From a virus: 64,000 nt of DNA. The stretch spans positions 32,001 through 96,000 of IMG/VR virus record IMGVR_UViG_3300032309_001546, one strand, 5' to 3'. Below the pieces are notes generated by a model. The model saw only the letters and a list, made by a program, of their open reading frames with translations, was not told where the DNA came from and made no database searches. The translations under genes were made by a program, and so were the position numbers. Below are positions 7,577 to 64,000 of the stretch, one piece after another; the stretch's first letter is position 1, and every line of letters begins with the position of its first letter.

Positions 7577-8846
7577 GCTCTTTAATATCTTCTGAGTAGT
7601 CTAAAGTAATTCGGACTCGACCAGGATTGAGAAAGCGCTCGAACAGCAGACCATGTTTAACAGGATCAAGATGCTTAGCTGTGATTCCTAGTGACCATGA
7701 GATCAAAGATCCACCACCAGAACCACGCGCTGGGCCAACAGGTATACCCATATCCTTAGCTAGGCTAACATAGTCTTGAACGACAAGGAAATAGGAACTA
7801 TACCGTGCCTCGTCAATGACTTGGAACTCATATCTAATTCTATCCTTGTAGGCTTTAGGGACATCAGCCCAGCTCTTTACGCCAAGCCGAGATATAAGAC
7901 CAGCCTTAGCCTTCTTAAGAAGCATTAGGCTTGTCCCCTCAGGCGTCATTCCTTCAAGCTGAAGATTCGGTGCCTTAGTTACTCGCTCAAAGTATGAGCC
8001 ATCTACAAGATCTGCTACATGCTGAGTATTAGTGATTGCTTCATGTGGTAACTGCCAGTCATCACAAAGAGTCTTTGCGAACTCTGCATCATACATCCAA
8101 GCATTATGATCTTGAACTTCATATGGCATTGTGTCTGGAGTCTTATGCATGCTCACACACATAACATAGCTACGCAACTTGTACTGATCTTGGTTCTGAT
8201 GATGAGCATCAGCTGTAAGTACAAGAGGAATATTCTTGCGTTTGCTTAGATCAATTAGATATTGATTGTAACCATACTGCTTTTCAACATTATTATGCTG
8301 AAGCTCTAAGAAGAAGCTGTCGTCGCCGACCGCCTCCTTAACTTCATCACACCATCTATCTATCTTTGCATGTTCACCCCAGTGCCAATACTTAAAGCAC
8401 TGACTACTGATACAAGTACTAGTAGCAATTAAGCCTTTAGCGTGTTGCTTAAAAGTATCTAGATCGATACGAGGATAGCGATAAAAGCCATCTTCATATG
8501 AATACTTAGTAAGCTTCATTAAGTTCTTATAACCTTCTTCGTTCTTAGCAAGTAATAGGAAGTGGCCATTGTTAACTGCTTTCTCGGCTACGCCATTCTC
8601 TGGCATAAAATCAGACTTAGTCTTGGCATCGCCAAAAGCAAGATATGTTTCATTACCAATGATAGGCTTTACGTTAGCAGCACGACAGCCCTTTACAAAT
8701 TCTGGGATGCCACCCATATATCCATGATCTGTCAATGCAACTGCATTCATTCCTCTGGCAGCAACAGTCTTACCCATTTCATCGGCTGGCTGTAAGCCAT
8801 CAAGCAATGAGTAGTAGCTATGCGCATGGAGATGTACCATTCCCAT
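7563..8846 (-). CDS. dnaE: DNA polymerase III alpha, N-terminal part (PHP domain and start of palm)
   Basis: HLHAHSYYSLLDG, ALTDHG, LLAKN, TADAH, GPARGSGGGS, LLFERFLNPGR. Confidence 0.93.
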   Translation of the reverse strand: MGMVHLHAHSYYSLLDGLQPADEMGKTVAARGMNAVALTDHGYMGGIPEFVKGCRAANVKPIIGNETYLAFGDAKTKSDFMPENGVAEKAVNNGHFLLLAKNEEGYKNLMKLTKYSYEDGFYRYPRIDLDTFKQHAKGLIATSTCISSQCFKYWHWGEHAKIDRWCDEVKEAVGDDSFFLELQHNNVEKQYGYNQYLIDLSKRKNIPLVLTADAHHQNQDQYKLRSYVMCVSMHKTPDTMPYEVQDHNAWMYDAEFAKTLCDDWQLPHEAITNTQHVADLVDGSYFERVTKAPNLQLEGMTPEGTSLMLLKKAKAGLISRLGVKSWADVPKAYKDRIRYEFQVIDEARYSSYFLVVQDYVSLAKDMGIPVGPARGSGGGSLISWSLGITAKHLDPVKHGLLFERFLNPGRVRITLDYSEDIKELENV

Positions 8847-8902
8847 ATTATTCTCTCGTTTAAGTTTAAAGATTAATAAAACACCAATAGGCGACAAGGC
8901 TA

Positions 8903-8931
8903 AATATAGCCCGCCGCCACATGGTTTGCAA
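8903..8931 (-). promoter_or_regulatory. sigma70-type promoter upstream of dnaE-N
   Basis: TTGCAA-17 nt-TATATT on minus strand. Confidence 0.5.
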
Positions 8932-8943
8932 TAGCAAAAAGTA

Positions 8944-9846
8944 CTAGTCTACTAGTTTCTTGCAGATTTGTATTCCGAGCTCAGCTAATGGGCTGCGCTC
9001 AATCTCGATAAGCTCAATAAAGCTAGTAAGAGGACTTTGCTGATAGATGTCAAGTCCAATTGTCTGAAGCACTGGGCAAGGTTTGCCCTTGCGATTTTCC
9101 TTTTCATCAATCTGATCTGTGTCAGCCATAAGTATTAACTTACTCTTCTCACCTAGGCGAGTGATTAGAGTCTTGAACTGATGGATTTCAACGTTCTGTG
9201 CTTCATCGCAAATGACTAATGCATTTGTAAAGTCTTCACCGCGCATGTATTCCAAAGGAATGCACTCAATCTTTCCTTCCTCAAGCTTCTGCTCAAAGAT
9301 CTTTAGGTAGGTTTTACCCCAGATCTTAGCAAGAGCACGCTCATAGGAGCTGAAGACCGGTCTCATCTTGTCTATAATCGTACCTGGAACATCGCCAATT
9401 CTACCGCCACTGCTGGTGGTAGCCTGGGCTCTGCTCTTTGTCAAGATAATCTTGTCATATTTCTTTTCGTCAAGCATATTAATCGCCGCAACCATTGTCA
9501 CATAAGTCTTGCCAGAGCCAGCTCCACCAAAGACTGTAAGCATTGGAATGCTTTGATCATACAAAGATGAAAGTAAATATTTTTGCTCTAGATTCTTAGG
9601 AGCAAACTTCTTAACTGTAGGTAAATTAATATTGACTAATGCTTCGCCGTTCCATCTCTTAAGAGCGCTATAGCTACCATGTCTAAAGCACCAATAGCTA
9701 TTAACTGGTGGTGCAGACATCTCGAACCAAGGATCAAAATCAAGTTCATCAATAGTAACAGGGTCATCCGTGAACAGTGGACCTAGATCTGCAGAATATT
9801 CTACATCAATTATGGTCGGATGAAATACTTCCTTTGGTTCTTGCAT
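8944..9846 (-). CDS. phoH: PhoH-family ATPase
   Basis: GGAGSGKT, EYMRG, CDEAQN, TRLGE, DTDQID. Confidence 0.9.
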   Translation of the reverse strand: MQEPKEVFHPTIIDVEYSADLGPLFTDDPVTIDELDFDPWFEMSAPPVNSYWCFRHGSYSALKRWNGEALVNINLPTVKKFAPKNLEQKYLLSSLYDQSIPMLTVFGGAGSGKTYVTMVAAINMLDEKKYDKIILTKSRAQATTSSGGRIGDVPGTIIDKMRPVFSSYERALAKIWGKTYLKIFEQKLEEGKIECIPLEYMRGEDFTNALVICDEAQNVEIHQFKTLITRLGEKSKLILMADTDQIDEKENRKGKPCPVLQTIGLDIYQQSPLTSFIELIEIERSPLAELGIQICKKLVD

Positions 9847-31745: not shown

Positions 31746-32141
31746 TTACAATGCGCTAAACAATCCTCCTCCGTTAGAATAGATTACCTTTTTCAAAGGG
31801 TACCAGCTAATGAGCTCTTCGCAGAGCGCACAAGGCTTACTATTCTTAAGTTCAAGAGTGTTAGGTTGAACCCTAACTACATACAGGCTAGCGCCACTAA
31901 GGTCGCTAGTAGGGAATCCATGTAAACATGTCATCTCAGCGTGCATTGTATCTCTTAAACTATTCGGGAAGTTATGCTTTAGGAAGGGTGAACCTTTGAC
32001 CGTGTTAAAACCGGTACTAATGATTGTACCACCCTTAATTAGAACTGCGCCATGGCAGAACCTCTCATAACTGGATCGTCTAGCTTGTTTAATAGCAACT
32101 CGAATATATCCTAGTTCTTTCTTACTCAGGTTATACTCCAT
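31746..32141 (-). CDS. zinc-dependent CMP/dCMP-type deaminase
   Basis: HGAVL, HAE, KPCALC. Confidence 0.85.
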   Translation of the reverse strand: MEYNLSKKELGYIRVAIKQARRSSYERFCHGAVLIKGGTIISTGFNTVKGSPFLKHNFPNSLRDTMHAEMTCLHGFPTSDLSGASLYVVRVQPNTLELKNSKPCALCEELISWYPLKKVIYSNGGGLFSAL

Positions 32142-55954: not shown

Positions 55955-56080
55955 CATAAATAAAGTACATTGAAGACTATATACTAGTAAAGAGAGATAG
56001 ACAGAGTAATAGGATATACAGAAGAGATTAAGGTCTAGACAGTAAGGAGTATACATGTAGCATGACAAGTCATGTCCTGC

Positions 56081-56425
56081 TATACCCTGCGTTATACCTT
56101 GCTATACCCTGCAAATACCCTGCAGATCCCCTTAAAATACCTTGCTATACCTACCCCGCTCCTACAAACTATACCAATATACCTTGTCCTCGCGTAAGCC
56201 CGTCTTATACCTCTATATACCCCTATATGCCAAAAGCATACAAGGCTATTCTCTGGACTCTTTTTGAACAAGTTCTTATACCCCTATATAGTAAACTTAT
56301 ATACTTGTATGTATACTTGTATACCCCTATGGGGCAAAAGCTGCCTTCATGAAACTCTGGATATCCATCGTAAAACTCTGGACTCTTTTTGGATCTTAAA
56401 AATGACTCTTATCTCTGGACTCTTT
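56081..56425. repeat. iterated WATACC and CTCTGGA(CTCTTT) motifs
   Basis: About a dozen WATACC in 56081-56325; CTCTGGA at 56251, 56355, 56376, 56413. Confidence 0.8.
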
Positions 56426-56488
56426 ATGGTCTCAGAATCCTGGCCCGGTTGCTTGCATGTATAGCCCTTTATAGCTATATCCTCCTTG

Positions 56489-56518
56489 AAAAGAAAAACC
56501 CTGCTGTTAGGCAGGGTT
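56489..56518 (-). terminator. intrinsic terminator
   Basis: AACCCTGC-loop-GCAGGGTT then TTTCTTTT. Confidence 0.75.
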
Positions 56519-56531
56519 CTCTTCCTTGAGA

Positions 56532-56921
56532 TTAGATCTCTTGGGCATGAGAGTGACGAGTCTCTCGATTAGGACTGTTAGCAGCACGGCGGCGCTTGAT
56601 AGCCTCCAACTTTGCAGCTAGTTCATTTTCCTCACGTTCAGCATTCAAAGCATCCAACTTACGCTGGTACTCACGCTGAGCACGGGTCGTCTTTACTTCC
56701 TCAACAGGCTTACTAGTAGATTGAGATGCTGCGGGTCTAATACCCTCAACCTTCTCAGTTACCATATTACTACCCTTCTTGAGGATAGGACCAAACAACC
56801 CCATGAAGATAGCAGGGATTACTAGAAGAACAGTACCGAAGATACCCCAAAGGGCACCTGCTGCACCTGCTGCTCCTGCTTTGGCAAGAAATGTTCCGCC
56901 TTCTGCGCCTACATCAGCCAT
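56532..56921 (-). CDS. membrane protein
   Basis: N-terminal TM, C-terminal coiled coil; GGAGG RBS. Confidence 0.7.
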   Translation of the reverse strand: MADVGAEGGTFLAKAGAAGAAGALWGIFGTVLLVIPAIFMGLFGPILKKGSNMVTEKVEGIRPAASQSTSKPVEEVKTTRAQREYQRKLDALNAEREENELAAKLEAIKRRRAANSPNRETRHSHAQEI

Positions 56922-56923
56922 GA

Positions 56924-57238
56924 TTAGCCCTCCACTCGATAGAATGCACCTGCATTAGGTGCGTGAATCTGAATAGCGCGATAACCTGGATGAAGCGGCT
57001 TACCCGTTGCATCCTTCTTGTGTCGCTTTAGAAATAGAGGAAGGTTCTTGAAGCCCAAGGTGAATCCCTCGGCACCAATCTCCCCATTGCTCCATACCTC
57101 GATATCATCACCACCCATCTTGCAACGAGTAACGACGAAGCTACCAGCCTCTGTACGAACTCGTGCTACAGTAGGAACTGCAGGGTTAGATGAACCAACT
57201 CGAATCACACCACTCGCGGTCAAAACATCACTCATCAT
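56924..57238 (-). CDS. hypothetical protein
   Basis: Start MMSDVL with GAGG RBS; track ORF extends through tRNA. Confidence 0.7.
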   Translation of the reverse strand: MMSDVLTASGVIRVGSSNPAVPTVARVRTEAGSFVVTRCKMGGDDIEVWSNGEIGAEGFTLGFKNLPLFLKRHKKDATGKPLHPGYRAIQIHAPNAGAFYRVEG

Positions 57239-57283
57239 ATACCTCTCATGTTGTACTCTAGAATATAGAGCGTTTGGGGAAAG

Positions 57284-57358
57284 TGTGCCCGACTGGACTT
57301 GAACCAGTGACCTACGGCTTAGAAGGCCGTTGCAACTATCCAACTGTGCTACGGGCAC
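57284..57358 (-). tRNA. tRNA-Arg(TCT)
   Basis: GTGCCCG/CGGGCAC, ACGGC-CTTCTAA-GCCGT. Confidence 0.92.
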
Positions 57359-57386
57359 GCAGCCTAGGTTTTACCCTAGTAGTTGT

Positions 57387-57881
57387 TTAGAAGCCGTCTC
57401 CATCCTCGAAGACAAAGTTGTCAGCAGGATTTCCGGCAGTCTGACGACGACGCACAGTAGTACGAGCCACAGCACGGACTGCAGGAGTTGCCACAGGACC
57501 AGCCGCCTTCATCTGCTGAGGAGCTGGAGTAGAAGCAGGTGCTGCTTCCTTGGTTGGCCGGCGACCATAGTTGATCTCATTCGCGACAACTTCAGTGATG
57601 TAGCGGGTCTCACCCTTGCTCTCATACTGACGAGTCTTGATTCGACCCTCGATCTCGGCCTCACTACCCTTTGACAGGTACTTGGCAGCATTCTCTGCAG
57701 CCTTACCCCACACAACAACACGATGCCACTCCGGCTCACTGACCGTCTCTCCCGCCTTATTTACGTACTCGTAATTAGTGCAGATAGACAAAGTAGCCCG
57801 GCTACGGCCAGTTTCAGTCGTAGACAACTTGGGATCATCACCAAGGAAACCACGAAGCTCAACACGATTCTTATTACGCAT
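57387..57881 (-). CDS. ssb: single-stranded DNA-binding protein
   Basis: NRVELRGFLGDDP, EWHRVVVWGK, YLSKG, EGRIKTR, TEVVA, acidic tail. Confidence 0.93.
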   Translation of the reverse strand: MRNKNRVELRGFLGDDPKLSTTETGRSRATLSICTNYEYVNKAGETVSEPEWHRVVVWGKAAENAAKYLSKGSEAEIEGRIKTRQYESKGETRYITEVVANEINYGRRPTKEAAPASTPAPQQMKAAGPVATPAVRAVARTTVRRRQTAGNPADNFVFEDGDGF

Positions 57882-57952
57882 CTCTCATCTCAACTTACCC
57901 ATCCACTGATGGTAATGTTTATTTCAATAAAGCATAATACTCACGATAAAAA

Positions 57953-57968
57953 GCGAGCGCAGCGAAGC
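57953..57968 (+). repeat. GC-GA-GC-GCA-GC-GAA-GC hairpin motif upstream of ssb
   Basis: Member of the GCGCAGC family. Confidence 0.8.
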
Positions 57969-58327
57969 TAATGTATGCCAAGTACAAAGATCTGAAACAT
58001 TGTACTAACAATGCTCAAAAATGTAATGGCAAAGTATAAAACGAAGATCCCACTGATAATGTCCCACAGTGTAGATTTCTTCATGCTAGGAAAAACACTA
58101 TCTCTGAAAGCACATTTGTGAAGAGTACCTTCAGTATCCAAGCTATTCCAATCAACGTAATGATTCTTTGCATTATTACCTCGTAGCTAGAGCCAAGATA
58201 GCAATAGCAGGCCAGATCAGACTAGCCGCAGTATAAGCAAACACAAACCAGACAGGAACCACAACGCTTGCAGTTCCATTGATGTGGCTCATAGTGAAGG
58301 ATACAGTACTCATAAGAATTGACTTCA

Positions 58328-58534
58328 TTAGATCCCCTTTCTGGTTTCGGCGTCTCCGATGTTGACGAACTTTGCTCCCTTGAATTTGCGGTACGAGGCG
58401 ATGAGAAGGCCTGGGACTCTCTGTACCCAGATGCCACCTTGTGCTTTGATTCGCTTTGCGATCCGCCTTGCAGCGTATCGATTAGGCGTTTCATGCACGG
58501 AAAGACATCCACTAGCAACAAGTACACTGTACAT
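58328..58534 (-). CDS. small basic protein
   Basis: AGGAG RBS, TAATG coupling. Confidence 0.6.
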   Translation of the reverse strand: MYSVLVASGCLSVHETPNRYAARRIAKRIKAQGGIWVQRVPGLLIASYRKFKGAKFVNIGDAETRKGI

Positions 58535-58731
58535 TAGATCTCCTGGTTGCGGATGATTTCAATTTCTTGACTGATCCGGATATCCCGGACAGCAAGCATC
58601 AAAGTACTGATACGGTCAACTCCCCAGACTGCTTCCAGCATTGCAATCAAGTATGCAATGTTCTCTGCATTTCGGTAGTTGATGTCAAAAAGACGGTTAT
58701 CGACTTTATCCATAGGATCTACGTTTTCCAT
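58534..58731 (-). CDS. hypothetical protein
   Basis: GGAG RBS. Confidence 0.6.
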   Translation of the reverse strand: MENVDPMDKVDNRLFDINYRNAENIAYLIAMLEAVWGVDRISTLMLAVRDIRISQEIEIIRNQEI

Positions 58732-58740
58732 GTTCTTCTC

Positions 58741-59022
58741 CTACTTGATGTCTTCAGCGCGGGCGATTGCCTCTGCTGCGAGAATGATGCATTCAAGGTT
58801 CTCGAAGTTCTTTTCAAGATACTCGATGCGGTTACGGGCCTTACGAGATCCTTCCTTGATTGCGAAGTCTTCATTCCACAGAGGAGCGGTGTCCTGAAGT
58901 AGATTGAATGCACAACGGTACTCTTGGAGCTGGGCCTTTCGACTTTCACGGGTATTAGCCGTAAGGTTGATGTAAGTCAGGTGATGAAAAGTATCGGTAA
59001 TCAGACTCTTTGTCTCGTACAT
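58741..59022 (-). CDS. hypothetical protein
   Basis: GGAGG RBS. Confidence 0.65.
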   Translation of the reverse strand: MYETKSLITDTFHHLTYINLTANTRESRKAQLQEYRCAFNLLQDTAPLWNEDFAIKEGSRKARNRIEYLEKNFENLECIILAAEAIARAEDIK

Positions 59023-59500
59023 TTATTCCTCCGAGGAATTGTTGTTGAACTTGAACTTGCGGCATCCATTCTTAGATTCCTCCTTCCGGGGGTCTCCATG
59101 GTTGCCGTTCTTGAAACCACCGTAAGCAAGCGTCATTGCGGCGCTATCACGACGAGGGACAAACTTATCTTTCTTTACAGTCTTTGACATTGTAACCTAC
59201 AGGTATAAGTAGCTAGAATCAAAGAACATCACTGCTGCGATGATCCAGAAAGCAACGCCGCCATAAAAACTGGCGACGAGAAGGGTTGTTTCAGCAAGGT
59301 TGAAGGTGTGCTCTTCAAACCGCTCCTTGTCAATGTTGAATGTAATCTTCATGACCAGTAACTCCAGCGAAGGATGTCAATGAGGACCATGAATGCGCAA
59401 GCAGCGAATCCAAGTCCACTAAGACAGAAAAAGAACAACGTGCAGAATTGCCAATTGTTCACAGTAACAGCATACTTACCAACTTGAATCTTGTGCATTC

Positions 59501-59647
59501 TTATTCTCCTTCAGGAAACAAACGAAAGAACTTATCCTCTGCCCAGTCTTCAAATGAGAAGTCCAGTTCTCGGTCAAGACCAAGTTCCGCAGCTTCAATC
59601 AACAAGTTATCCTCATTCTTGTCAAACCACTCTTCAAAGTCAATCAT
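59501..59647 (-). CDS. small acidic protein
   Basis: Start MIDFEE with GGAGG RBS. Confidence 0.6.
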   Translation of the reverse strand: MIDFEEWFDKNEDNLLIEAAELGLDRELDFSFEDWAEDKFFRLFPEGE

Positions 59648-59672
59648 GGTGTCCTCCTTAGGACATAAGGGT

Positions 59673-59858
59673 TTAGAATTGTTCGAATGCCTTCTCAGCG
59701 TGAGCAAGCGCAAGGACAAGGCTATCTCTGTAGCCCTCAAGCTCTGGATGGGTTGGTAGTACACCATTTGCCCGCGTAACCAAACTCTTGAGAGTAGATA
59801 CCATGCCTTTCAGCGCATCGTAATCTATTCCACTATGACCAGCATACATCTTCATCAT
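59673..59858 (-). CDS. hypothetical protein
   Basis: GGAG RBS. Confidence 0.6.
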   Translation of the reverse strand: MMKMYAGHSGIDYDALKGMVSTLKSLVTRANGVLPTHPELEGYRDSLVLALAHAEKAFEQF

Positions 59859-59861
59859 GAC

Positions 59862-60068
59862 TTACTCCTCCAAACCAGAGTGATTGAGGAAGTCCCCGAT
59901 AACGGCATGGATAGCGCTGACCTTGTCACCAGCATATCCGTTCCAGTCATGGACTTCCATGCTATTGTCAGCGCGGACATCAAGGCCAAGGATCATGACA
60001 TCTCCCTGGTAGATCTTGATAAACGCAGATCCAGTCTCTATGTTCTTCAAAAAGTCTACAGTCAGCAT
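59862..60068 (-). CDS. hypothetical protein
   Basis: Start MLTVDF with GGAGG RBS. Confidence 0.6.
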   Translation of the reverse strand: MLTVDFLKNIETGSAFIKIYQGDVMILGLDVRADNSMEVHDWNGYAGDKVSAIHAVIGDFLNHSGLEE

Positions 60069-60097
60069 GTTGTCCTCCAAGGACATAAGGGGGAAAG

Positions 60098-60165
60098 TCT
60101 TCCTGATAGGATTCGAACCTATCTGCTAGACCCGCAGAAGGCGGGTTTGCAATACCATAAGGAAG
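60098..60165 (-). ncRNA. tRNA-like element lacking a D arm
   Basis: CTTCCT/AGGAAG stem, ATAGG-TTCGAAT-CCTAT T arm, ACCCGC/GCGGGT hairpin. Confidence 0.45.
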
Positions 60166-60252
60166 TGATTCAGCCTTTGTGGCTACTGGACATGACACCC
60201 AATAGGTTATCCTACCAACGGGCAGGTTACAGGCTGTTGACCTATTGGACTA

Positions 60253-60816
60253 CTAGTTCTCTGGGAAGATGTTTCCCAGCAGAAACTCTTGACATTCCAG
60301 TCGGGAGCTGGGCTCGTAGTAAGGAGCGAGTTCAGGATCACGGGCGTTGACCTTGGCTCTCTTGGCCTTGATCTGTTCCCTGAAATCCTGAAGTTCCTTG
60401 CTGCCCTTCTCCATGCGCATGATAGAGTCTGTCTCGTTAGTGAGGACTTCTCCCCACAACTTCAGACCCTTCTTCAACGTCTCAAGGAACACGGGAGTCA
60501 TGGATACCAGGTGAGCAATCTGGTAGAAGCAATTCTCGTGGACACTGTTCTCCAAAGAGATGCCGACATCTCTCCAGCCAGTGCCATGGTCCCAGTACAG
60601 ACCCTGGAACTCCAAGTCAACTACCTGGATGGTGTTCGGAAAACTGACCTTGAAGGTCGTATCTTCCCACCTCTTGCTCCAGGGGTCCTGTTCCTTAGCG
60701 GAGTAGAAGTTCTTCGTGCTCTTCTGGACAACCTCGATGTTCCAATCATGCTCTTCACAGATACTCTCCAGAGTCTTCTGGATGATAAAGTCAAGGACAA
60801 TGTCTTTCATGTTCAT
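60253..60816 (-). CDS. hypothetical protein
   Basis: Start MNMKDI with GGAG RBS. Confidence 0.7.
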   Translation of the reverse strand: MNMKDIVLDFIIQKTLESICEEHDWNIEVVQKSTKNFYSAKEQDPWSKRWEDTTFKVSFPNTIQVVDLEFQGLYWDHGTGWRDVGISLENSVHENCFYQIAHLVSMTPVFLETLKKGLKLWGEVLTNETDSIMRMEKGSKELQDFREQIKAKRAKVNARDPELAPYYEPSSRLECQEFLLGNIFPEN

Positions 60817-61061
60817 TCTCCAGTAAAGAGGTAACATTACCTCTGAGGTTATAAAAAGTGCTCCAGTTTACAGACATGGAGCAAGGTCACGGGACACCAT
60901 TATTTGTGCTCCCCTATACTAGGCTGTTTCTCACCTAGTAATTCAATCATATGGGAATCGAACCCATAACTAGATATCCATAATGGTATATCTAGCGTCA
61001 CCAGACTAATCAAAAGGGTACGGGTCGTCTTATTTGCTAGCGTGCGAACCCCTTCCCAGTC

Positions 61062-61266
61062 GTTACTAGCGAACTAGTAACCACCCCATGTCTATATAAC
61101 TACTAGGGCAGGGGTCCCTAATAATTAGCCCATGTTTACTCTCATTACTCGCGGCAGGGCTCCGCCAGTAATAAACCCTATGTTTATCTCGTTACTAGAA
61201 GCAAGGGACTAACTAGTAACCACCCCGTGTTCATCTTGTCCATTAGTGGCTGAGGCCCACTAACAG
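61062..61266 (-). ncRNA. tandem array of four H-type pseudoknots plus terminal UUCG hairpin
   Basis: 44-49 nt period, covarying P1 and P2, G-U pairs on minus strand. Confidence 0.7.
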
Positions 61267-61470
61267 CCAGCCTATCTTTATAGCCAGGTTTGCAACCCTG
61301 ACACCCCTAGGTTTCCATGAACGGTAGGCGCGTTCATGTGTTTCTAGAAGGATTAGAAGGTGACGTCTTGCAGTACGAACAATAGGGTTTACATCCCCTA
61401 CTATTCGCAATGTAACCTGCGTGACGCCGTAAACTTGTGAGCATTTTATAGACCTACTCAGGTCTGAGGA

Positions 61471-61677
61471 TTACACGAAGAAGCGACGAGCCACGTGAAC
61501 GGCCTCAATGAGAGACTCAGAACCAGTGCTGGCATCTTCCTCGTATTCCTCGAAATCGACAAACTCTTCAGGACTGTCCGGGCGATGGCTCCAGTCGATG
61601 CGGTCAATGACCTCATCTTCGCTACCGACAGGAATGTTGAAGCAATCCTCAAAAGACACGAACTCAACAGGGACCAT
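61471..61677 (-). CDS. small very acidic protein (possible DNA mimic)
   Basis: GGAG RBS; D/E-rich. Confidence 0.6.
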   Translation of the reverse strand: MVPVEFVSFEDCFNIPVGSEDEVIDRIDWSHRPDSPEEFVDFEEYEEDASTGSESLIEAVHVARRFFV

Positions 61678-61726
61678 GACAGACTCCGTTTGTTACGAAG
61701 ACACACATAATGTCTTCACCATGAAA

Positions 61727-61743
61727 GGCGAGCGCAGCGAGCC
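61727..61743 (+). repeat. GGC-GA-GC-GCA-GC-GA-GCC hairpin motif
   Basis: Same as 62195..62211; flanks CATG(A/T)(A/G)A and TAATA shared. Confidence 0.85.
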
Positions 61744-61762
61744 TAATACTGTGTAGCGGAGT

Positions 61763-61800
61763 AAAAATAAAACCCCAACACATCCTACTGTGCTGGGGTT
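61763..61800 (-). terminator. intrinsic terminator
   Basis: AACCCCAGCACA..TGTGTTGGGGTT then TTATTTTT. Confidence 0.75.
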
Positions 61801-62190
61801 CTATCTCTCTATCTCGCATTAGGACACTAGCAGGGTCACTACTAGTTACGAGTCTATCAGCCCAAGAGGAGGCTTATCCAAATCGTAATGCGGAATTGGC
61901 AACCGCACCTGTCTACTTACACTAGAACCCGACAGGCCCTTTCTAGTGCTTTGATACCCGACAACTACTGGTGTGGTATCTACTGGAGTCTTGAGCCCAG
62001 TCTACTCTCCTCCTGGGTACGCCTAACTAGGCTCACCATGCTCCCCCGAGGTTGGGAACATGGGTACGGGGCGCGTAACTGCCCCTTCCCAGTTTTTATG
62101 TTAAGCGGACTGGGAACCGCCCCTGTCTGATACATACCAGAAGCCGACAGGCCTCATCTGGTACGAGTAGCGGTAGCTACTATCCGCCAT
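61801..62190 (-). ncRNA. candidate structured ncRNA with duplicated double-pseudoknot module
   Basis: No minus-strand ORF; many hairpins; two modules with covarying stems. Confidence 0.6.
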
Positions 62191-62194
62191 GTGA

Positions 62195-62211
62195 GGCGAG
62201 CGCAGCGAGCC
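62195..62211 (+). repeat. GGC-GA-GC-GCA-GC-GA-GCC hairpin motif
   Basis: Exact copy of 61727..61743. Confidence 0.85.
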
Positions 62212-62364
62212 TAATAGAATCCTATTACCTGGACTCTGTCTGGCCATACTAGTAATGCAACTATTTTTGGCCGACCCTAGTAAAGGGGTTTCCCCCCGAG
62301 TAGGGGGGTTTCGTGGGGGTAAAAAAGTTCCCCTCCCACACTGTAAGTGTGAGAGGGGGGTTCT

Positions 62365-62844
62365 CTAGTCCCAGTCGCCAGCAACAGGGGCGGACTTGCG
62401 GGCGGCAGGCTTGGCGGCGGGCTTGGCAGGCCTCGCGGGAGCCTTGGCAGCGGGCTTGGCGGGTGCCTTGGCGGGCTCCTCGACAACACCGTGACGACGC
62501 ATAAGCGCCTTCTCGGTGGCCAAGAGACGAATCTGGGCCTTGCTGTACACGATGAGCCTGGTGGCGTTGTGCCAGGCCTTGTCATCGCTCTGCCAGGACT
62601 CCGTCTCGAGGCCTGCCCCGTCGATGTGCACGAAATTGTACCCGCTCTCGTCCGCCTTTGCGACGAACCAGTTCACGAGCTCCTGGCCGACCAGACGCAC
62701 CCGCGTCCAGTTGGTGTCCTCCGTCCCGTAGGACGAACTGACCGAGAAGTCCGCGTACTTTCCGCTGGCCCCGATCACGGGCTGCTTGCCCATGTAGCCG
62801 AAGCCCGAGACCTTGAGGGTGAGAAACTTGCGATTCTGTTCCAT
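62365..62844 (-). CDS. SSB-like OB-fold protein with PAK-rich linker and acidic tail
   Basis: GYMGKQP, FSVSSS, TNWTRVRLVG, LETESW; start MEQNRK with GGAG RBS. Confidence 0.7.
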   Translation of the reverse strand: MEQNRKFLTLKVSGFGYMGKQPVIGASGKYADFSVSSSYGTEDTNWTRVRLVGQELVNWFVAKADESGYNFVHIDGAGLETESWQSDDKAWHNATRLIVYSKAQIRLLATEKALMRRHGVVEEPAKAPAKPAAKAPARPAKPAAKPAARKSAPVAGDWD

Positions 62845-62889
62845 TGACGTTCTCCGTGGTAAGTGAGCCAAAGGCGGCTCATCATGAAA

Positions 62890-63088
62890 GGCGAGCGCAG
62901 CGATGCCTGTGCTGCGGCGTTGTTGCTGTTGCCTGCGTAGCGCAGCGGAGCAGGCTGTGTTGCTACCTGCGGAGCGCAGCGAAGCAGGGTAACCACGTAG
63001 CGCAGCGGAGTGGTGTGTCCTGTGGTTCTGATGAGCGTAGCGCAGCGGAGTGAATCAGAGGCGAGGACTCGGCGCAGCCCAGCGGAGT
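62890..63088 (+). repeat. cluster of six GC-GCA-GC capped hairpins
   Basis: Units at 62890, 62931, 62966, 62992, 63028, 63071. Confidence 0.9.
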
Positions 63089-63169
63089 ATCTGGACTTTT
63101 TTACGACTATTTGTACTATTTTTGTATTATAGAAAGAATAGCCCATTGCTGGGCTACTCAATCTAATGG

Positions 63170-63940
63170 CTACTTCTTACCCGTGATACGGTTAAGACGT
63201 GCCGCGACACCGGCCTTCTTCTCCGAGGGAGCAGGGGCGGGCTTCTCTTCAGCCTCAACCTCGGCGTCGAAGTCATTGGGATCGATGAAGATAATCTTCA
63301 GGCCCGACTCTTCAGCGTAATCAACCGCATTCTTTGTACCGCCAGTGCTGCCATCCCAGACAGCAATGACGATATCGGCGCAGTCAATCATCTGCATGTT
63401 ACGGCGCTGCATGCAGAACTTGTCTTCGCCATAGGTCTTCTCGCTGACCTGGACGACTTCGCTGGCAACTTCCAGCATGTTCCAGTAGCGCTGCTTGGCT
63501 TCGCGGGGCCACATAGCCTCCTGCTCTACACAGGGGATCATGACCGTGAACGGGATACCCATCTCGTGCGCAATCTCTGCCGCATCCTGGTCAACGCCAA
63601 GGGCACCGCCAGTGATTAGCCAGAGCTTCTCACCGTGCTTGGCAAGACCACGCTCAAGCTGAGCCGCAATCTGTTCACGTACCCAGATGCGCTTCTCCGC
63701 ATTGGGATTGTATCCGCCGATCTTGTCGGGACGGTGACCAGTGAAGGCCACAAAGAAGTACTCCGTCTCTTCGGCTTCAACTTCCTCAGTTGCAGCCGCG
63801 ATCTTAACCTTGAAGGGATCGACATACAGCATACCGGGCTTGTAGTCTGCATACCCTTCGGGGCGGTTGTTGTGGGTAGACTTCGCGCCCGCAGGAGGAT
63901 TCGGCAGAGTGCTGACATCCCGCTTCTGGATGTAAAGCAT
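63170..63940 (-). CDS. SLOG-superfamily protein (YspA/DUF1273-like)
   Basis: AFTGHRP, TGGALGVDQ, RRNMQMID, AVWDGSTGGT. Confidence 0.85.
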   Translation of the reverse strand: MLYIQKRDVSTLPNPPAGAKSTHNNRPEGYADYKPGMLYVDPFKVKIAAATEEVEAEETEYFFVAFTGHRPDKIGGYNPNAEKRIWVREQIAAQLERGLAKHGEKLWLITGGALGVDQDAAEIAHEMGIPFTVMIPCVEQEAMWPREAKQRYWNMLEVASEVVQVSEKTYGEDKFCMQRRNMQMIDCADIVIAVWDGSTGGTKNAVDYAEESGLKIIFIDPNDFDAEVEAEEKPAPAPSEKKAGVAARLNRITGKK

Positions 63941-64000
63941 TACTCCATCAAGTCGGGCTTCGTCATACCAGGCTTGAGGGCCCTTCTGGCGGATCTGCCA

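Follow-up and report, generated by a model that had tools for sequence, protein, structure and literature searches.

A stand-alone gene for a structured RNA with repeated double-pseudoknot modules in the early region of an uncultured freshwater phage

The stretch of DNA analysed here (the window: 64,000 nucleotides (nt), positions 32,001 to 96,000 of IMG/VR virus record IMGVR_UViG_3300032309_001546) carries at 61763-62214, on the minus strand, a stand-alone gene for a structured non-coding RNA of ~430 nt, located in the early region of an uncultured freshwater phage of ~175 kb. Its novelty lies in a repeated and shuffled double-pseudoknot module that occurs naturally in fused and unfused forms, and the locus very probably represents a genuine structured RNA gene that has not been catalogued before. 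The unit is poor in open reading frames (ORFs), opens with a 19-nt hairpin motif and closes with a strong intrinsic terminator, the 3' end by which a stand-alone small RNA gene is recognized. No credible ORF is present on the minus strand between the terminator of a 168-amino-acid (aa) gene (62358-62330) and a 68-aa gene (61677-61471). In the minus-strand sense, the hairpin motif is followed by the 5' hairpin P0, module M1, about ten further helices, module M2, a 3' hairpin with a UGACC loop, and the terminator, and the whole unit folds with a z score of -5.9 against shuffled sequences. The initial annotation of the window, made from its letters alone, had described a self-contained RNA of about 400 nt between the hairpin motif (62195) and the terminator. 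All elements were found where it had placed them, on the minus strand, and the flanking signals agree with a self-contained unit; that description is refined by comparison with relatives, which shows the unit to be a fusion of two paralogous RNA genes, A (with M1) and B (with M2).

Double-pseudoknot modules and evidence for a transcribed RNA

Both modules follow the same order, an S1 hairpin whose loop pairs with its tail (pseudoknot helix PK1) and then an S2 hairpin whose loop pairs with its own tail (PK2). S1 comprises 7-8 base pairs (bp), and CCUGUC in its loop pairs with GACAGG 6-7 nt past the hairpin; PK1 is separated by 0-1 nt from S2, a 5-bp helix whose loop pairs with a tail 7-10 nt downstream. 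The gap between the PK2 5' strand and the S2 3' strand is also 0-1 nt, and PK2 measures 5-8 bp across the M1 copies and 4 bp in M2. In the window, 215 nt separate the two modules, whose S1 hairpins (27 nt) are ~78% alike. A third paralogue, M0, directly precedes M1 in the lake metagenome contigs L017, L018 and L019. The duplicated double pseudoknot, with the positions and pairings of M1 and M2, had been proposed in advance and proved correct, and the proposed invariance of CCUGUC/GACAGG holds within M1 and M2 but not in M0, where PK1 has changed in a compensatory manner to CCCAUC/GAUGGG. Invariant unpaired bases, UCGG in the S1 loop and UGUA after S1, point to possible tertiary or protein contacts.

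Homologues were recovered by pattern scans from three IMG/VR phage records (L004/L006 and L005) and from the three lake metagenome contigs (L017, L018 and L019), and compensatory changes maintain every helix in them. Nine module copies were aligned; 92% of the pair cells are standard pairs, a share that drops to ~40% if the 3' partners are shifted by 1-3 columns. Eight pairs are altered on both sides (five in S1, one in S2 and two in PK2), in agreement with the earlier claim that the outer stems covary. With M0 included, PK1 is 100% paired in all nine copies, and two of its six pairs are compensatory double changes. The G-U pairs make sense only in RNA read from the minus strand. When the 146-kb genome was scanned for the composite double-pseudoknot structure, M1 and M2 were the sole matches and 20 shuffles gave none, whereas the single-pseudoknot pattern on its own arises often by chance. 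Folded without pseudoknots, single modules are no more stable than shuffles (z ~ -0.8), so the support for them rests on comparison and not on energy.

Covariation extends beyond the modules. P0 reads GGUGGC-UGCC-GCUACC in L005 and L006, with one compensatory pair and one wobble relative to the window. The stem of hairpin B1 changes to GAGGU/ACCUC in L005, with its loop AGUUNCGC retained, and hairpin B2 is also kept in L006, around 8938-8975. In the central domain, the GAUACC/GGUAUC hairpin contains one compensatory pair (RNAalifold, three sequences), and a long-range helix predicted from three sequences may enclose M2 within unit B. Coordinates of all elements are listed in Table 1.

Table 1. 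Elements of the RNA unit and its flanking repeats in window coordinates, ordered along the minus strand.
Feature	Position	Strand	Sequence	Remarks
30-nt direct repeat, copy 1	62187-62216	-		Holds hairpin motif AGGCUCGCUGCGCUCGCCU (62194-62214), candidate promoter or 5' element
P0 5' hairpin	62166-62181	-	AGUAGC-UACC-GCUACU	
Module M1	62163-62086	-		S1, PK1, S2, PK2
M1 S1	62163-62157 / 62141-62135	-	UACCAGA / UCUGGUA	
M1 PK1	62151-62146 / 62127-62122	-	CCUGUC / GACAGG	
M1 S2	62121-62117 / 62108-62104	-	GGCGG / CCGCU	
M1 PK2	62116-62109 / 62093-62086	-	UUCCCAGU / ACUGGGAA	8 bp
B1 hairpin	62068-62085	-	GGGGC-AGUUACGC-GCCCC	First hairpin of unit B; marks the A/B fusion point
B2 hairpin	62036-62064	-	CAUGUUCCC-AACCUCG-GGGGAGCAUG	One compensatory pair
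Central domain	61953-62036	-		Long-range helix 5' strand (62036-62004), hairpins 62001-61982 and 61980-61953; RNAalifold, three sequences
Module M2	61948-61874	-		S1, PK1, S2, weak PK2
M2 S1	61948-61941 / 61927-61920	-	CACUAGAA / UUCUAGUG	
M2 PK1	61936-61931 / 61913-61908	-	CCUGUC / GACAGG	
M2 S2	61907-61903 / 61893-61889	-	UGCGG / CCGCA	
M2 PK2	61899-61896 / 61881-61878	-	CCAA / UUGG	4 bp only, weak
Long-range helix 3' strand	61856-61873	-	GCCUCCUCUUGGGCUGAU	Predicted partner 62036-62004; little covariation
3' hairpin	61813-61852	-		Conserved loop UGACC
Intrinsic terminator	61763-61800	-	AACCCCAGCACA-GUAGGA-UGUGUUGGGGUU, then UUAUUUUU	12-bp G+C-rich stem
30-nt direct repeat, copy 2	61719-61748	-		468 nt from copy 1, upstream of 68-aa gene

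The unit is transcribed, on the weak to moderate evidence of Logan contigs (assembled contigs, not reads) from lake metatranscriptome libraries of four studies. Contigs of 151-419 nt, with word depths of 3-117 and one or two differences from the window, cover 61848-62086 including M2 (61936-62086 in run X18), and one contig from run X16 covers 62090-62159, corresponding to M1. Two runs from different studies share identical flanking letters that differ from the window, indicating that the same relative's RNA was captured in different studies. In the flanks of these contigs, the stem of the 3' hairpin is wholly changed but still complementary (CUUAUGG/CCAUAGG), and the UGACC loop is the same. 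The coding genes, positions 62160-62400 and the terminator had no RNA contigs, from which no inference was drawn. Given that lake metatranscriptomes from several studies hold the RNA, it may be abundant in the environment.

These data bear on the notion that the locus encodes no functional RNA and is instead a DNA-level element, such as an origin or a recombination scar, or a small protein gene. Such a notion could draw on the position of the unit in a repeat-flanked hot spot of cassette shuffling and on an 80-aa plus-strand frame in the window. However, minus-strand G-U pairs and compensatory pseudoknot changes fit RNA rather than DNA or protein, and RNA-library contigs cover the unit. The 80-aa frame, which the initial annotation had named as the coding alternative, is contradicted by its being shifted or split in L019 and L005; together with the short minus-strand frames, it is frame-shifted, split or stopped in L019, L005 and L017, and no ORF on either strand of the unit is conserved among the relatives compared. 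An explanation without a functional RNA is therefore extremely improbable.

Fusion, shuffling and distribution of the RNA cassettes

In L005, each half of the window RNA is a gene by itself and has a hairpin motif and a terminator of its own. Unit A consists of the hairpin motif, P0, M1, three hairpins and the terminator, and unit B of the hairpin motif, B1, B2, the central domain, M2, the 3' hairpin and the same terminator as in unit A. In the window and in L019, M1 passes straight into B1, and the 3' part and terminator of unit A and the hairpin motif of unit B are missing. The window RNA is thus a fusion of two older RNA genes, and because L019 is an independent contig, the fusion is real. 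Homologous units in L005, L006 and L018 end in the same terminator, which closes both A and B in the relatives and is conserved in all units, and those of L005 and L006 each stand behind their own hairpin motif. In the relatives, a variant of this motif, which is a candidate promoter or 5' element, stands in front of each RNA unit and of several protein genes.

The RNA units of L006 are located elsewhere in the early region, amid other ORF-free units with hairpin motif and terminator, and the early region is thus an array of RNA cassettes. Three such further units were observed at L006:7740-7910, 8262-8440 and 8880-9170, one of which shares B1 and B2 with unit B and has no M2. A search of the L006 cassettes against Rfam returned only sub-threshold, terminator-like matches, for example NsiR1 at 26 bits against a threshold of 39. 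Individual RNAs contain one to three PK1-type modules, which have been gained and lost. A building block that is duplicated, lost and fused between close relatives provides a natural variant series for structure-function work.

A covariance model of the module matched the genomes G000, G001 and G002 and gave no match in the complete relative G003 or in G004, where the gene for a single-stranded DNA-binding protein (SSB) is followed directly by a homologue of the 68-aa acidic protein. Two 30-nt direct repeats with the hairpin motif, spaced 468 nt apart, flank the cassette, and one complete related genome lacks it; the gene is therefore an accessory RNA cassette, shuffled within a small clade of uncultured freshwater phages. 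Scanning 185,579 bacterial and archaeal genomes with the module pattern yielded only chance matches inside coding regions, and blastn of the unit against 50,697 phage records yielded no match, with no cultured phage close. A locus search anchored on the neighbouring 168-aa protein found no relatives, and a second DNA pattern, derived from unit B, recovered L005 only.

In T4-type phages, PeSL cassettes are small early units surrounded by repeated promoter and terminator motifs, and they undergo insertion, deletion and fusion between relatives (PMC2839356, PMC4122927). The cassettes described here resemble them in that repeated motifs flank small early units that are inserted, deleted and fused among close relatives. 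They differ in their motifs, a hairpin with UC/UC mismatches and a triloop plus the octamer ACTCCGCT after terminators, and in their cargo, which is an RNA gene.

Comparison with known RNAs and candidate functions

Like the initial annotation, which had recognized neither a known riboswitch nor a ribozyme, the Rfam searches connect the unit with no catalogued family. With Rfam 15 at gathering thresholds, only tRNAs elsewhere in the window passed and none in the unit, and at E <= 10 the interval 61600-62400 gave sub-threshold chance matches at the terminator only. By its general nature, the RNA can be grouped with the orphan structured RNAs of phages and with the strings of pseudoknots in transfer-messenger RNA (tmRNA) and plant-virus 3' untranslated regions (UTRs). 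GOLLD (RF01998), ROOL (RF03087) and T4 RNA C/D are also phage-borne, stand-alone, intricate non-coding RNAs of a few hundred nt, with no function assigned so far and carried by genomes rich in tRNA genes; unlike them, the present RNA, which matches none in sequence or structure, is smaller (~430 nt), has repeated double-pseudoknot modules and is confined to one small freshwater-phage clade. Consecutive H-type pseudoknots 0-1 nt apart, which could stack as a rod, also occur in PK2-PK4 of tmRNA and in the upstream pseudoknot domain of the tobamovirus 3' UTR. Unlike these strings, the unit has neither a tRNA-like domain nor a tag ORF, and a tRNA-like element is found in the neighbouring RNA instead. 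ARAGORN at default settings called no tmRNA, and no Rfam tmRNA family matched. At relaxed thresholds it called M2 a tRNA-Asp (GUC) and proposed several permuted tmRNAs; all were dismissed as spurious, since M1 cannot form the anticodon stem and the calls contradict one another.

The reading favoured here, though only tentatively, is that of a trans-acting protein-binding or decoy RNA of early infection, serving host takeover or counter-defence. Early transcription would run from the upstream hairpin motif to the terminator, probably carried out by the giant RNA polymerase of the phage itself, and the RNA would accumulate stably and act in trans. Because only 0-1 nt lies between PK1 and S2, and S1/PK1 and S2/PK2 form H-type pairs, the four helices of each module could stack into one rod of ~26 bp; such rigid pseudoknot rods, together with the invariant unpaired bases, might present binding surfaces that titrate or scaffold a protein. 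That the RNA acts in trans is favoured by the presence of a terminator in the unit, by the seeming abundance of short contigs in RNA libraries and by the accessory distribution among small early genes. As the cassette is accessory, shuffled and placed among small early genes, a role in host takeover or as an anti-defence decoy appears the most likely.

Several points weigh against this reading. A trans-target search found no 9-of-10 complement to the S1 loop on transcripts within the window. The hairpin motif is no more than a candidate promoter, and no sigma-70-like promoter was found for the unit. Neither the strand nor the ends nor the level of an RNA can be read from the RNA-library contigs, and DNA may be present in RNA libraries. 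With few and closely related members in the family, the covariation rests on a small number of independent events. Finally, in L017, M0 and M1 stand without a terminator in the 5' leader of a gene whose product passes the Pfam SSB model, an arrangement that fits a role in cis.

Such a cis role would be that of a leader or operator for SSB-type early genes in the style of the T4 gene 32 pseudoknot, setting SSB dosage, with the pseudoknots nucleating binding of the phage SSB or stabilizing the neighbouring mRNA. In T4, gp32 represses its own mRNA via a 5' pseudoknot, which provides a precedent, and the likeness extends to an H-type pseudoknot in a phage early region near SSB-type genes and to the SSB leader of L017 (3674-4293, minus strand of that locus). 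Both the window and L019 have the cassette immediately after the 168-aa gene that occupies the SSB position; that this gene encodes SSB is only a lead. However, the 168-aa protein of the window has neither a Pfam SSB match nor BLASTP similarity to the SSB of L007, and G003 and G004 carry the SSB gene without the cassette. In contrast to the T4 operator, with which it shares no sequence similarity, the window unit stands downstream of the putative ssb gene, behind that gene's terminator, and has a terminator of its own; a strong terminator ends the RNA in the window, L005, L006, L018 and L019, and a new hairpin motif follows it in all of these but L018. The unstructured A/U-rich operator tract over the ribosome-binding site is also lacking, the L017 leader being structured and G+C-rich up to that site. 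The window unit thus lacks the layout of a gene 32-type operator, and regulation of SSB in cis is an unlikely role.

A second alternative is that the modules imitate ToxI- or CptI-like RNAs and so neutralize an abortive-infection endoribonuclease of the host, as mimics of type III antitoxins. ToxI, CptI and TenpI are likewise small pseudoknotted RNA units, and phage phiTE reportedly escapes ToxIN through a pseudo-ToxI RNA, giving phage mimics a precedent. The present RNA is pseudoknotted, early-expressed and accessory, it has a tandem-pseudoknot array nearby (61062-61266), and the missing toxin gene beside it would not be needed by a mimic. Type III antitoxin arrays consist of tandem near-identical repeats of 34-45 nt, whereas M1 and M2 are only two diverged copies with a long spacer and do not form such an array. 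Neither a toxin gene nor a ToxI-type Rfam match accompanies them. The flanking ORFs have no PHROG or Pfam toxin match, and PF13958, searched for ToxN, was absent from G000-G002 in a search that was likewise silent in the control genomes. Antitoxin mimicry is considered quite improbable.

Less probable still is a ligand-sensing or catalytic RNA, either a self-cleaving ribozyme or a tandem riboswitch-like aptamer, given that PK2 resembles a preQ1-I pseudoknot. The H-type topology of PK2 is that of the preQ1-I aptamer (RF00522), with a 5-bp stem, an A-rich tail as third loop and 3' pairing to the loop, and invariant bases occupy loops and linkers. However, no preQ1, pistol, twister, hatchet, HDV or other match was found at E <= 10, and preQ1-I, pistol, twister and HDV-like folds compared by eye were rejected, Rfam supporting none of them. 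For preQ1-I in particular, RF00522 gave no covariance-model match at that threshold, the second helix has 5-8 bp in M1 copies (4 in M2), and 0-1 nt between the PK2 5' and S2 3' strands leaves no ligand-specifying L2 loop for a binding pocket. There is also no downstream gene within the unit that could be regulated.

Returning to the trans-acting RNA, a broader version, itself speculative and unlikely, is that the early region forms a toolkit of swappable pseudoknot aptamer modules in abundant anti-defence decoy RNAs, one of which might block a host nuclease, reverse transcriptase or toxin by filling its nucleic-acid cleft. If true, this would add a further class of RNA-based counter-defence to pseudo-ToxI and RNA anti-CRISPRs. 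Few structured phage RNAs of several hundred nt that lack an assigned function have been described, and each new family may reveal unfamiliar RNA biology. In addition, the early region apparently combines N4-like hairpin motifs with a giant phage RNA polymerase, and a role for the RNA would illuminate host takeover by this clade.

Neighbouring features of the early region

A second ORF-free RNA region lies at 60850-61470 on the minus strand, where some four H-type pseudoknots follow one another in tandem (61266-61062). In contrast to the cassette, this region has been retained by every relative, G003 among them, and RNA-library contigs cover it at word depths of up to 501. A tRNA-like cloverleaf (z = -3.3) occupies 60938-61016 on the minus strand; its 7-bp acceptor stem includes G-U pairs, its D arm is short and its anticodon arm long, and the T arm reads GGG-UUCGAUU-CCC. 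It was called by ARAGORN at relaxed thresholds only and scored 13.9 bits, below threshold, with YrlA (Y RNA-like). With a tRNA-like end after a string of pseudoknots, the arrangement is reminiscent of tmRNA and of viral tRNA-like structures.

The hairpin motif occurs in the window at 62194-62214, at 61726-61746 and at about 57952, and many times in L005, L006 and L018. Its outer stem GGC(C)/G(G)CC is followed by a UC/UC mismatch, 1-2 inner bp and a triloop that reads UNC (GNA on the template strand). RNA units and protein genes alike are preceded by the motif; G003 has a different hairpin, GGGGCUAUCGCCCC. The motif may be an N4-like hairpin promoter for a giant phage polymerase. The octamer ACTCCGCT, located at about 61755-61762 in the window and also present in L004-L007, L017 and L018, lies a few nt past terminator U-tracts and 15-45 nt before hairpin motifs, and could be a second promoter element or a recombination element.

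Positions 56000-64000 of the window, protein genes included, have a G+C content of 47-58%, compared with ~38% in the rest of the window. The 68-aa protein (61471-61677, minus strand), also encoded in L005, L006, L007 and L019, is very acidic with a conserved C-terminal TGS(D/E)SLIEAVH..ARRFF; neither Pfam nor PHROG gave a match for it, and it may be an early protein of the DNA-mimic type. Between the upstream terminator and the hairpin motif, at 62275-62312 on the minus strand, a pair of adjoining 18-nt repeats (GAAACCCC..UAC..GGG) forms small hairpins and is also conserved in L019.
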